The notes beneath the pieces are model-generated. The model ran no database searches and was not told the origin of the DNA. It saw only the letters and a program-made list of their open reading frames with translations. From a virus (lineage: Duplodnaviria; Heunggongvirae; Uroviricota; Caudoviricetes), in the IMG/VR virus record IMGVR_UViG_2778261064_000018: DNA of 4,076 bases; one strand, 5' to 3'. Positions 75-4,074 of this stretch are shown in pieces; position 1 is the first letter of the stretch, and each line of letters starts with the position of its first letter. A program made the translations under genes and the position numbers.

Positions 75-785
75 TTACACCCTCCCCAGTGCCAGCGGTC
101 TGTTGCTCTGACCATTAACCCCCTGATGCAGCCTGGCGTTTTTCCCGGCGATAAAACCGGCTGTAGCGGCAAACTCTGCACCCCGGCACGCTTTAGCTGT
201 GCGCATATCCCCGTCGCGCAGCCCCTTAGTGCTGTGCAGGTTCTTTCTGTAAAGCTCAAGGCGGCTTTTTTCTTCCGGGGAGACGTCATACACCGCAATG
301 ACATCACGGGCACCAAAGACCCAGCCTTCGCAGAACTGGTCGCCACGGGCCACCCGCGTGGACGGACCACAACGTTTGCAGTGTTTATCCTGATATTTCT
401 TACGCTCTGCCATCATCTGACGGGAAAGCACATCAAACGCGTAAGCCGCGATTTCCGGGCGGCTGTCAGAGCCATAAAAACGCACGTGACGTTTGAGTGA
501 ACCAGAAGCCCGGTACTCGCCGGAGATGTAACACTCGACACCGAAGGCTTTACAGACCAGGTCACACAGGATGTGCATATAACGCGGCGGCGTACTGGCA
601 TCACTCGGCGCACCCGCGCTGGCAGCTTCCTGAATGTCGAACAATTCAGCGTCGTTTTCGCTGATGCCATGCTGGCGCATATAAGCCTGGGCTTTTGCAA
701 TAGCGTTAGCGGCTTCTTCCGGGCTTGATGTCCCTCTGGCAAGGCGTAACAGTTTTTTGATTTTGGCAATGTATTTATCTTTCAT
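75..785 (-). CDS. Conserved prophage early-region protein, DUF2786-like N-terminus (236 aa)
   Basis: Long minus-strand ORF, ATG at 785..783 and TAA at 77..75. The N-terminus MKDKYIAKIKKLLRLARGTSSPEEAANAIAKAQAYM resembles, from memory, the K-I-x-K-L-L-x-L-A / Ala-rich helix signature of DUF2786 prophage proteins. The central part carries several Cys, including a CxxC (HCKRCG). Only a weak Shine-Dalgarno is visible, and the gene starts 14 nt after the stop of the 799..981 ORF. Family name unverified. Confidence 0.8.
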   Translation of the reverse strand: MKDKYIAKIKKLLRLARGTSSPEEAANAIAKAQAYMRQHGISENDAELFDIQEAASAGAPSDASTPPRYMHILCDLVCKAFGVECYISGEYRASGSLKRHVRFYGSDSRPEIAAYAFDVLSRQMMAERKKYQDKHCKRCGPSTRVARGDQFCEGWVFGARDVIAVYDVSPEEKSRLELYRKNLHSTKGLRDGDMRTAKACRGAEFAATAGFIAGKNARLHQGVNGQSNRPLALGRV

Positions 786-798
786 AGTCGTCTGAATC

Positions 799-981
799 TC
801 AGCATCCTGAATTCTGAATTACGCAACTTCCGGTACGGCCTTCAGGAACGTGGGGAGTTCGTTCTGGCTGCGGCGCTGGATGAACATCTGCTGTCGACTG
901 AGAACTGGTCGCAAGACGATTAAAACAAACGATTGTCAGATTAATTTCGCGGGCGAATTTTTTTTGCTTGGCGATATTCAT
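799..981 (-). CDS. Hypothetical small protein (60 aa), coding status uncertain
   Basis: ATG at 981..979 is preceded by GAGGAAG with a 7-nt spacer, and that RBS sits directly 3' of repeat copy 1, the same arrangement as for the 181-aa gene. The C-terminal half (PAPQPERTPHVPEGRTGSC...) looks low-complexity, so this may instead be a leader or regulatory region. Confidence 0.3.
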   Translation of the reverse strand: MNIAKQKKFAREINLTIVCFNRLATSSQSTADVHPAPQPERTPHVPEGRTGSCVIQNSGC

Positions 982-997
982 AAATAAACTTCCTCAG

Positions 998-1055
998 ATT
1001 CAGGCGTAAGCCAGCCCCGGCGGGTTTACGCCATATACAAATAAAATTAAAAACA
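998..1055. repeat. Intergenic direct repeat copy 1 (~58 bp) with embedded imperfect-palindrome hairpin at 1003..1032
   Basis: attcaggcgtaagccagccccggcgggtttacgcc followed by an AT-rich tail ending aaataaaattaaaaaca; near-identical to 1623..1680. The hairpin arms GGCGTAAGCC / GGGTTTACGCC give about 10 paired positions on the DNA. Lies between the 181-aa ORF stop (1062) and the 60-aa ORF start (981). Confidence 0.85.
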
Positions 1056-1061
1056 GACTTA

Positions 1062-1607
1062 TTAACTACGACGTTCAGCTTTCCGGTAATGACGGTCAAC
1101 AGACTTTACGAACGCCTTCACATCACGGGAAATCGAATCCAGCGGATAATATTCATCCAGTAGTTCCATTCCACTGAATCGAATCTGAAAAAAATCAGGC
1201 TTATCTTTATATGACTCCATCAGGTCAATAAACCGCAGCTGACGCGGGAGGGATTCCTGCACGCCTGAAATAGTGAGCAAATCATCTTCAAGGATGTATG
1301 CGAGGTCTTCCATATCCTTACAGTCAGACAGCATGGATATTCTTGTCAGTATGTTCCGTGTGGCGATATACAGCGCGGCTGTGTCATTCGCCATCATGGC
1401 GAACAAATCCCCCTGAATATAAGCCCCCTTACTGGCCATAGCATTCCCGGCAATCTGCGCATCAAGTACCACATGCATAAAATCGGCAGGTGCTCCCAGA
1501 TGGCCCAGCAATGATGACGCCCATAACGTTACATTGGTTAACTTCTCAGATGAACGGGTAGCAAAACCTTCAGGAGTAACAATAAAATCCCAGACTTTAT
1601 CTTTCAT
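1062..1607 (-). CDS. Hypothetical protein (181 aa), no recognisable family; candidate accessory/moron gene
   Basis: Minus-strand ORF with TAA at 1064..1062. The ORF track begins at a TTG (1613), but an in-frame ATG at 1607..1605 is preceded by AAGGGGA with a 7-nt spacer, so 1607 is preferred. Flanked on both sides by the 58-bp repeat and visibly more AT-rich than its neighbours. No catalytic motif recognised. Confidence 0.75.
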   Translation of the reverse strand: MKDKVWDFIVTPEGFATRSSEKLTNVTLWASSLLGHLGAPADFMHVVLDAQIAGNAMASKGAYIQGDLFAMMANDTAALYIATRNILTRISMLSDCKDMEDLAYILEDDLLTISGVQESLPRQLRFIDLMESYKDKPDFFQIRFSGMELLDEYYPLDSISRDVKAFVKSVDRHYRKAERRS

Positions 1608-1622
1608 ATACAAATCCCCTTA

Positions 1623-1680
1623 ATTCAGGCGTAAGCCAGCCCGGCGGGTTTACGCCTGTTTTAAATAACAATTAAAAACA
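1623..1680. repeat. Intergenic direct repeat copy 2 (~58 bp) with embedded hairpin at 1628..1656
   Basis: attcaggcgtaagccagcccggcgggtttacgcc plus tail ...aaataacaattaaaaaca. Differs from copy 1 by a 1-nt C deletion in the loop, a 1-nt indel in the tail and a divergent 6-nt stretch right after the hairpin. Lies between the 63-aa ORF stop (1688) and the 181-aa ORF start. Confidence 0.85.
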
Positions 1681-1687
1681 AATTAAA

Positions 1688-1879
1688 TTAATGCGGTGCT
1701 TTCAGTGTTTCGACTTTAACGAAATAAGGCTCGACATTAATTTCAACCACACAGCCACATTTAAAATCTCTGGCCGGTGCAACAGTTTTTACCACCCGCC
1801 CACCACGCACTGCCCGGTGTGCAATGTGCATGAAACGAGTACCTGGCGGATATAGCTGATTAAAGCGTTTCGCGTTCAT
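1688..1879 (-). CDS. Hypothetical small protein (63 aa)
   Basis: ATG at 1879..1877 with an upstream AAGGATGGAAG purine-rich stretch. Overlaps the 3' end of the upstream gene by about 20 nt, consistent with translational coupling. Stop at 1690..1688, just before repeat copy 2. No family recognised. Confidence 0.45.
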   Translation of the reverse strand: MNAKRFNQLYPPGTRFMHIAHRAVRGGRVVKTVAPARDFKCGCVVEINVEPYFVKVETLKAPH

Positions 1880-2093
1880 GAGGCGGCTTCCATCCTTTCA
1901 GGTGAGCGTTAGCGCAGAACTCCGCACGATGTTCAGCCCAGATGCGGCGCAGGGTGCTACACGGGCTTTGCGCTGCCTTACGCCACAACTTTTCAGCCTC
2001 GGCATAATCGCCGCGTTGTTCTGCTCTGGACGCGCCCAGCGAATACGCCGCGCAACTATTTCCGGCTCTGTACTCTTTGATATCCTGATGCAT
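1860..2093 (-). CDS. Small helical protein (77 aa), possibly ANR-family-like regulator
   Basis: The track ORF (1860..2204) overlaps the upstream gene by over 100 nt. The internal ATG at 2093..2091 lies 1 nt after that gene's TAA (2097..2095) and is preceded by AGGGG with a 6-nt spacer, so it is the preferred start. The product MHQDIKEYRAG...DYAEAEKLWRKAAQ...RRIWAEHRAEFCANAH has a W...W...R...C pattern that I recall, without certainty, from ANR (AraC-negative-regulator) small proteins. Confidence 0.5.
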   Translation of the reverse strand: MHQDIKEYRAGNSCAAYSLGASRAEQRGDYAEAEKLWRKAAQSPCSTLRRIWAEHRAEFCANAHLKGWKPPHERETL

Positions 2094-3682: not shown

Positions 3683-4074
3683 CAGTGAATTAACATTTCT
3701 GCGAATTTATCAATGGCCTGCACACTGACCGGTGCATCGCTGATATCACAAATCCGGTACACACCGCGCGCCAGTTTGAACAGGCGGCGGGCATTACCCA
3801 GTGAGCGTGCGTAGAGCGCCTCGCTGATTTCCGGTTCTGCTGCTTCCGGCATCAGCCCGGTAGCTATCTGGTTAAAATCTTCCTGCGACAGCGTATCGCC
3901 CAGGTTAAGCGCCAGCGCCACACGGCTGTATAACTGGGCGAACTCACCGCGACGTCCCTTGAGGTTAATCAGAAGGCGTGGCATACCCGCCAGGACAATC
4001 CCGATACCCGCTTTGTCATGCAGACGGCGCAGAACCTCCAGTGCGCGATAGGGGAGCAGTTCAGCCTCGTCCAC
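3682..4074 (-). CDS. C-terminal part of an AAA+ transposition-type ATPase (Mu B / TniB / ExeA-like); 5' end lies beyond the window
   Basis: The open frame runs off the right edge, so the Met at 4074 is only an internal residue. The segment ...GIGIVLAGMPRLLINLKGRRGEFAQLYSRVALALNLGDTLSQEDF... matches the h-h-G-x-P-x-L...L...QL-SR...L pattern found C-terminal to the Walker B region in Mu B / TniB / ExeA-type ATPases, recalled from memory. Stop TGA at 3684..3682. Confidence 0.6.
   Translation of the reverse strand: MDEAELLPYRALEVLRRLHDKAGIGIVLAGMPRLLINLKGRRGEFAQLYSRVALALNLGDTLSQEDFNQIATGLMPEAAEPEISEALYARSLGNARRLFKLARGVYRICDISDAPVSVQAIDKFAEMLIH

Follow-up and report, generated by a model that had tools for sequence, protein, structure and literature searches.

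A conserved stem-loop of about 30 nucleotides (nt), normally present once behind a small early gene of Mu-like prophages, appears to have been duplicated around one accessory gene in a 4,076-nt stretch of caudoviricete DNA (IMG/VR record IMGVR_UViG_2778261064_000018; the whole stretch is called the window below). The accessory gene encodes a protein of 181 amino acids (aa), and the small early gene, called p63 here, one of 63 aa. An earlier, sequence-only reading had taken the two repeat copies as the bounds of a moron or accessory cassette. In the interpretation that we favor, with a probability of roughly 60% for its three parts taken jointly, the repeat would be a duplicated boundary hairpin, the cargo behind it would turn over by recombination, and the hairpin would act between cistrons of the early mRNA.

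Two copies of a stem-loop unit enclose the 181-aa gene

The element of about 58 nt occurs twice in the same orientation and encloses a single open reading frame (ORF), as had been claimed from the sequence alone. The features concerned are the following.

1623..1680, minus strand: repeat copy 2, p63-proximal and in the ancestral position, with spacer (1680-1657), 29-nt stem-loop (1656-1628) and TGAAT (1627-1623)
998..1055, minus strand: repeat copy 1, distal and duplicated, with spacer (1055-1033), 30-nt stem-loop (1032-1003) and TGAAT (1002-998)
1062..1607, minus strand: 181-aa accessory ORF (PHROG 7741), from the RefSeq annotation of an identical prophage and a profile match
1615..1621, minus strand: Shine-Dalgarno-like AAGGGGA of the 181-aa gene, from direct reading of the sequence
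1688..1879, minus strand: p63, 63 aa (PHROG 5591), a conserved gene with the hairpin in its 3' flank

Aligned together with their flanks (985-1065 versus 1610-1690), the copies show a mean column identity of 88% over 82 columns, whereas a repeat finder that allows no gaps picks up no more than 38 nt at 79%, because they differ by a 1-nt indel. The 35-nt core, consisting of the hairpin plus TGAAT on the coding strand, is the same in both copies save for one deleted G. A chance repeat was considered and rejected, since the hairpin pattern had 0.00 expected occurrences in dinucleotide shuffles.

Read in mRNA sense, each unit runs from an AT-rich spacer through a GC-rich stem-loop of 29 or 30 nt and an A-rich pentamer (here TGAAT) to a Shine-Dalgarno sequence and a start codon. 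The stem-loop has the form GGCGTAA-N15/16-TTACGCC and reads GGCGTAAACCCGCC(G)GGGCTGGCTTACGCC on the coding strand of the window. The ATG of the 181-aa ORF (1607) lies 20 nt past the end of the copy 2 hairpin, and that of a 60-aa ORF (981) lies 21 nt past copy 1. Copy 1 contains about 23 nt of the AT-rich spacer typical of p63; its upstream spacer always co-occurs with the 3' end of the 181-aa gene, and its downstream side changes with the next gene.

The sequence-only reading had regarded the repeat copies as bounding the cassette. This part of the proposal has to be revised: the element is a conserved stem-loop that normally occurs once after p63, and the repeat is best read, from the comparisons below, as a duplicated copy of that boundary hairpin and not as a cassette-specific end.

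The stem-loop is conserved behind p63 in Mu-like prophages of Enterobacterales

We chose 53 loci by p63 homology alone, comprising 13 species-representative genomes, 38 viral contigs and 2 isolated phages. The hairpin was found 24 to 46 nt past the p63 stop codon in 52 of them; the exception, L072 (L numbers are our own locus labels), has a hairpin of a second type, B, in that place (~3735-3760). These loci come from hosts such as Kluyvera, Citrobacter, Intestinirhabdus, Yersinia, Pectobacterium, Serratia, Pantoea, Kosakonia and Klebsiella. Among isolated phages, p63 is encoded by just three (Pseudomonas phage VW-6B, Klebsiella phage Kp4852-3 and ST405-OXA48phi1.1), and the first two are among the selected loci. 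Mean identity to the Escherichia coli form is 90% for the hairpin versus 65% (nucleotide) and 54% (amino acid) for p63. The lower stem GGCGTAA/TTACGCC and the (C/A)GGG loop are near-invariant across genera in which p63 is 44 to 72% identical. Different loci have different genes after the hairpin, with more than 15 unrelated starts, and 10 of the 53 loci carry two or three hairpin copies.

Within E. coli, the element is present in 55 of 5426 complete genomes, at one or two places each and nowhere outside these prophages. A host repetitive extragenic palindromic (REP) sequence or bacterial interspersed mosaic element (BIME) was ruled out on this distribution, the element always being at this prophage position. 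Each prophage has one to three copies in a single slot. A covariance model built from 18 variants detected no further strong copies in the searched loci, with hairpin B scoring 15-17 bits. No Rfam family matched above its gathering score, the sole match, to Lnt, scoring 26.5 bits where 55 are required (E = 0.76). Comparison of the loci thus shows, as the normal state, one hairpin directly after p63 in Mu-like prophages of many Enterobacterales genera, where it marks the boundary between conserved early genes and a hypervariable slot.

The type B hairpin (GGCGCAGGTAAACAGGTCTGCGCC; GCGCAGG...CCTGCGC) stands after a cargo gene of the DUF7448 family in L003 (3833-3868), L005 (2556-2591) and L017, as well as after p63 itself in L072. 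It is placed in the same way ahead of the next ribosome site, and in E. coli its 3' end is likewise ...CGCCTGAAT.

The sequence conservation and the constant neighborhood also bear on another explanation, in which the hairpin is an operator for a phage protein, either as RNA, in the manner of Com and mom, or as a DNA palindrome; p63 would be the candidate binder and would switch on translation or transcription of the slot. Stem and loop are near-invariant in sequence and not in structure alone, and p63 adjoins the hairpin in 52 of 53 loci, although this adjacency could be plain shared ancestry and the p63 homologue of L072 precedes a different, B-type hairpin. The p63 protein is small and basic, and its structure model resembles SH3-like barrels, which in many cases bind nucleic acid; the matches (e.g., to the integrase C-terminal domain, PsaE and ribosomal proteins) are not significant (best E = 0.17) and the model itself is poor (predicted local distance difference test [pLDDT] 66), so that the model gives a weak hint of a nucleic-acid-binding fold beside the hairpin. 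In phage Mu, the small protein Com acts on a hairpin of mom mRNA before the translation start. The arrangement here is similar in that a gene for a small phage protein is followed by a hairpin before the translation start of the next gene, but p63 lacks a zinc-finger motif and is unrelated to Com, and its binding is purely hypothetical. We consider the operator explanation unlikely.

Pseudomonas phage VW-6B (L032, MF975721.1, ~5124-5162) carries p63 together with a hairpin that differs from the E. coli form at only three positions. This phage, reported from Pseudomonas fluorescens, closely resembles the Serratia prophage L042, and its recorded host may need checking.

Cargo in the slot varies and includes units bounded by the hairpin

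Among the 5426 complete E. coli genomes, 58 chromosome or plasmid records match the region. In 27 of the 58 the match covers at least 80% of the query, a coverage that requires the 181-aa gene and therefore indicates its presence; the rest lack the gene or carry other cargo. The slot was found in the following states.

Empty slot (p63, hairpin and DUF2786 gene, with 80-86 nt between p63 and DUF2786; 80 nt in L007): L007, L014, L016 and L021
181-aa gene alone: L004
DUF7448 gene alone: L005 and L017
181-aa gene with the remnant of an opposite-strand gene: the window, L013 and L031
DUF7448 gene, 181-aa gene and remnant: L003, L008 and L019
Intact opposite-strand gene of 72 aa: E2348/69 (L002) and L011
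Opposite-strand gene of 86 aa: L006

Alignment of relatives between p63 and the DUF2786 gene, which the sequence-only reading had proposed as a check, thus revealed the predicted picture, with the 181-aa ORF absent or replaced by other cargo behind the hairpin. The gene is not universal, being absent from many relatives. That the repeat precedes whichever gene comes first in the slot explains the cassette architecture and does not abolish it.

The window differs from L026 by a single 625-bp gap, which comprises the 181-aa ORF and one repeat copy, with flanks that are 94% identical. Likewise, L003 and the window are separated by a 451-bp gap that corresponds to the DUF7448 unit, and both gaps end in or at hairpin copies. 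In E. coli, the 181-aa and DUF7448 units start directly after ...CGCCTGAAT in three contexts and end with their own hairpin plus TGAAT. The 181-aa unit stands behind the standard hairpin in two backgrounds and behind the type B hairpin in a third; at this last junction, only a 9- to 10-nt core is held in common with the standard hairpin. L015, a Salmonella/Citrobacter-like locus, carries three cargo genes with a hairpin after each, and L027 equals L015 minus one unit; the junctions in these two loci follow AGATT or TGATT, not TGAAT.

Several loci carry scars. Behind its second cargo gene, L015 has a fossil DUF2786 start, and a complete spacer and hairpin of the p63 type come next. In the window, 13 nt (TATGAAAGATAAA, coding strand) are repeated exactly at 774-786 and 1596-1608, which gives the DUF2786 gene and the 181-aa gene the same first four codons, MKDK, and in L028 a third, unrelated gene begins with MKDKVW behind another hairpin copy. 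These common start codons suggest that crossovers also occurred inside the 5' ends of genes, besides those in the hairpin. At 2892-3050 of L006, a divergent 181-like gene (MRDKIWGFIYPPKGFAT...) is cut down to its first ~20 codons behind the hairpin, and the opposite-strand 86-aa gene has taken the place of the remainder; because of this fragment, the 181-aa family may once have had, or may still have, more divergent relatives. Taken at the sequence level, the duplicated spacer, the fossil start, the common codons and the truncated genes fit unequal or illegitimate recombination between related phages.

In the mechanism that we propose, such recombination would have stacked alternative cargo in the slot and thereby duplicated the unit, with each cargo gene and the DUF2786 gene keeping a leader of hairpin plus ribosome site. 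The copies would then provide 35-58 bp of near-identical sequence, through which homologous recombination could delete cargo or swap it between co-resident phages. The window would represent the one-cassette state, in which the 181-aa gene and one repeat copy form a 625-bp present/absent unit among relatives that are otherwise 94% identical.

The exactness of the E. coli junctions raises the alternative of an integron-like cassette system, with the hairpins as recombination sites at which a phage or host recombinase inserts a gene plus its 3' hairpin site-specifically after the hairpin-TGAAT core. Tandem gene-plus-hairpin units, up to three in the array of L015, and hairpins that vary around a short conserved junction core, as behind the type B hairpin, are indeed reminiscent of integron attC sites. 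However, no tyrosine or serine recombinase or integrase is among the 41 annotated features of the surrounding 25-kb prophage stretch, which encodes a Mu-type transposase instead, and no attC-type core sites (RYYYAAC/GTTRRRY) occur in GGCGTAAACCCGCCGGGGCTGGCTTACGCC or its flanks. An attI/Pc platform is lacking here as well, nor is there any sign of cassettes at other locations, the 181-aa gene never being found outside this slot. Furthermore, many junctions bear the illegitimate or homologous scars described above, and most loci carry cargo without a second hairpin. With neither an integrase nor attC-type core sites, a site-specific mechanism is the least probable of the explanations weighed here. 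A looser variant, in which the hairpin is a dedicated cassette platform, i.e., an RNA or DNA site bound by p63 or another early protein that licenses expression and directs the capture and exchange of units, integron-like without an integrase, is speculative and in our view improbable.

Base pairing, strand and link to translation

Across 18 distinct variants, 82.5% of the cells of the 13-pair helix are paired, compared with at most 47% in controls with slid partners. Four pairs are changed on both sides, one in the lower stem (A-U to G-C, in Pantoea) and three in the upper stem (G-C to U-A, C-G to U-A and C-G to G-C), and none of 500 shuffles reached the observed covariation score. The covariation supports base pairing of the predicted helix.

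The distance from the hairpin end to the next start codon is 16 to 24 nt (mode, 19-21) in 57 of 59 distinct contexts, whatever gene follows; for this count, in-frame upstream starts called by the script were corrected, and the other two contexts have no called start. Several variants contain G-U pairs that are possible only in the sense orientation. No U tract follows the hairpins on the sense strand, where the one 3' of the 181-aa ORF is followed by UGAAUCUGAGG, and hairpin B has no U tract on either strand.

The fixed spacing to the start codon, the B-type hairpin without a U tract, the loss of the antisense U tract at copy 1 of the window, the sense-only G-U pairs and the scarcity of antisense genes lead us to favor an intercistronic role of the sense strand in mRNA, linked to the ribosome-binding site that follows. 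On the polycistronic early transcript, the stem-loop would most likely serve as a 5' or 3' protective hairpin and as a translation insulator, and any gene landing behind it would thus be expressible. Intercistronic hairpins such as the RNase III sites of the T7 early operon and the REP stabilizer between malE and malF define or protect mRNA ends. Like them, the element is a conserved stem-loop that separates cistrons in a long operon and lies shortly before the ribosome-binding site of the next one, but it differs in its short stem and is not a host REP sequence. An RNase III site was judged unlikely, as a stem of ~13 bp with two mismatches is too short for a typical substrate.

Several observations weigh against our joint interpretation. 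The stacking and deletion model is inferred from genome comparison, with no recombination event observed, and most non-E. coli loci have varied cargo but a single hairpin copy, which means that duplication is not needed for turnover. The covariation does not prove an RNA structure, because a palindromic protein-binding DNA site would also evolve symmetrically. Furthermore, 15 of 22 variants fold more stably on the antisense strand (mean free energy, -15.5 versus -13.7 kcal/mol), with folding z-scores of -3.6 and -5.0 versus -0.1 and -1.2 for the sense strand and one dominant structure. A moderately U-rich tract (AUUUUU, AUAUUU or UGUUUU) comes after the antisense hairpin in most of the copies next to p63. 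Wobble pairs and free energies together give a mixed answer on the active strand.

These folding data would suit an intrinsic terminator or insulator on the antisense strand that stops slot transcripts, e.g., from opposite-strand morons in the lysogen, from entering the region of p63, DUF3164, B, A and the repressor; the second copy would then be a by-product of cargo insertion. In addition to the more stable antisense hairpin with its GC-rich stem base and U-rich tail, the position of the opposite-strand genes of E2348/69 (72 aa) and L006 (86 aa), which end 43-80 nt before the hairpin, is in line with this idea. Plausible opposite-strand genes, however, exist in only two E. coli variants, and elsewhere antisense ORFs look like shadows of sense genes. 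On the antisense strand, the combination of GC-rich stem and U tract is partly present at copy 2, but not at copy 1 (tail AUAUACAAAUAAAAUU) or at the B-type hairpin (tail AUAAAAAAACG), and a consensus terminator scan called neither copy. The antisense terminator also leaves the fixed 16 to 24 nt to the next sense start codon unexplained. We regard it as a serious, though less likely, alternative to the intercistronic role on the sense strand.

The 181-aa gene is accessory cargo of E. coli prophages

The protein matches PHROG 7741, a family without known function, over its full length (E = 3.8e-122, residues 1-181 of 181). Sequence and profile searches of Pfam, NCBIfam, PADLOC and PDB, which do not include a dedicated anti-defence library, gave no match, and the initial description as lacking a recognizable family holds for these four resources. 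A match to a MucBP adhesin was dismissed as a spurious repeat artefact, its E-value being inflated by five repeats in the adhesin. Homologues were found in E. coli only, at identities of at least 85%, in a search of 5.8 billion proteins and an exhaustive HMMER search of 1.84 billion representatives. The profile and structure searches that had been suggested for clues to a function yielded nothing beyond PHROG 7741: the AlphaFold (AF2) model is all-helical with a pLDDT of 42 and is not usable, and Foldseek found no fold match (E > 3). A role as a host-takeover or counter-defence factor is a guess, suggested solely by the position of the gene.

Among seven full-length alleles, the ratio of nonsynonymous to synonymous substitution rates (dN/dS) is ~0.39, and one allele is frameshifted with a 162-aa product (L020/L047, IMG/VR UViG_2531839662_000040). 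Because of this ratio and the frameshifted allele, the gene is taken to be real, moderately constrained and dispensable; by the searches above it is confined to E. coli. Even the most divergent allele (85%) occupies the same slot, and by this comparison the gene is evidently slot-bound and not freely mobile.

The sequence-only reading had also described the gene as visibly more AT-rich than its conserved neighbors. With a GC content of 45.8%, this is correct with respect to the DUF2786, ANR and DUF3164 genes (53-56%), but not with respect to p63 (46.9%) or the other small early genes (42-46%), to which it is close.

A classical moron would be autonomous, carrying a promoter and a terminator for itself and being expressed while the prophage is repressed, and the repeats would be its regulatory ends. 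As in morons of lambdoid and Mu-like phages, a single accessory gene lies here between genes that are adjacent in relatives, and its composition is somewhat off that of the large conserved neighbors, with a lower GC content. Unlike morons, it has neither a promoter nor a terminator that could be detected: a scan of 700-2000 gave no sigma-70-like promoter (2.1 expected in shuffles), and on the strand of the gene no U tract follows the hairpins. The gene points the same way as the early operon and is tightly packed in it, starting at a Shine-Dalgarno sequence right after the hairpin, and in loci with an empty slot it is core genes that stand behind this element. A strict moron is therefore very unlikely, and of the original "moron/accessory cassette" we retain the second term, as accessory cargo that behaves as a clean 625-bp indel.

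Prophage context and neighboring genes

The window is 100% identical to a prophage stretch of E. coli OkiPb01701; megablast gave no match to the window among 50,697 phage records. In the RefSeq annotation of the surrounding 25 kb (41 features), the early genes are all on one strand, as are the credible genes of the window (minus strand). The order of the annotated genes is as follows.

First part: repressor-like helix-turn-helix gene, Ner-like gene, Mu-type transposase and AAA ATPase (B)
Then: small ORFs, DUF3164, "ANR family" gene, p63, 181-aa gene, 60-aa ORF and DUF2786
Last part: further small genes, gp16, Mor, lysis genes, terminase and head genes

Because the annotation includes the transposase, the B ATPase, DUF3164, gp16 and Mor, the window is assigned to the early ("semi-essential") region of a Mu-like transposable prophage of E. 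coli, of a lineage other than Mu itself. The Mu-like setting assumed in the sequence-only reading is borne out by the transposase, the B ATPase, Mor and gp16. The remaining features of the window are listed below.

75..785, minus strand: DUF2786/DUF7168 gene, a conserved gene that closes the variable slot on the right
792..923, plus strand: 3' remnant (residues 30-72, roughly the 3' two-fifths) of the 72-aa opposite-strand gene, by tblastn at 88% identity
799..981, minus strand: putative 60-aa gene, RefSeq-annotated, in antisense overlap with the plus-strand remnant
1860-2093, minus strand: ANR gene (77 aa), annotated as "ANR family transcriptional regulator," with a 20-nt overlap with the p63 start

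The 72-aa gene is intact in E. coli E2348/69 (L002, 2916-3134), where it has its own upstream AT-rich region. The 60-aa ORF begins 21 nt behind copy 1, its stop lies 13 nt short of the DUF2786 start, and for this reason it may act as a translated leader. A codon-position test of which strand codes at 799-981 had 16 sites, split 6/7/3 and 6/3/7, too few to favor either strand.

ANR proteins are antagonists of AraC-type virulence regulators. The phage-borne ANR copy occurs in enteropathogenic E. coli (EPEC) E2348/69 and in Shiga toxin-producing E. coli (STEC) strains and may be of interest in its own right.

Relation to known cassette systems and significance

The closest analogue is provided by the PeSL (promoter-early stem-loop) cassettes of T4-like phages, in which a strong early promoter of the sigma-70 type is joined to a stem-loop with demonstrated terminator activity (Arbiol et al. 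2010, PMC2839356; Comeau et al. 2014, PMC4122927). They flank non-essential ORFans in hyperplastic regions, occur in many copies per genome, and recombination between copies explains insertions, deletions and replacements; mini-circles have also been reported (PMC2839356, PMC4122927). In common with PeSLs, the element described here is a repeated conserved stem-loop at the borders of variable ORFans with motif-bounded indels. It differs in that no promoter was detected (by scan and by reading of the spacer), that there is no sense U tract, that one to three copies occur at one slot and that the phages are Mu-like and not T4-like. For Mu-like phages of Pseudomonas, no conserved sequences flanking the variable regions were reported and the mechanism of acquisition was called mysterious (Cazares et al. 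2014, PMC4378225), whereas here a conserved element does flank the variable slot. Accessory cassettes bounded by regulatory motifs in phage hyperplastic regions are thus already known in kind; for this particular hairpin, no prior description was found in the literature library searched, a weak indication that it is new.

What is gained functionally for now is modest, because the 181-aa protein is still an orphan, and the most interesting part of the finding is the unusually conserved boundary stem-loop and not this protein. As a marker of a hotspot in enterobacterial Mu-like prophages, the 30-nt stem-loop offers a concrete, testable substrate for modular exchange. Since it is far better conserved than the surrounding genes, it could also be used as a search handle to harvest early-operon accessory genes, which probably encode host-takeover or counter-defence factors, from genomes and metagenomes.

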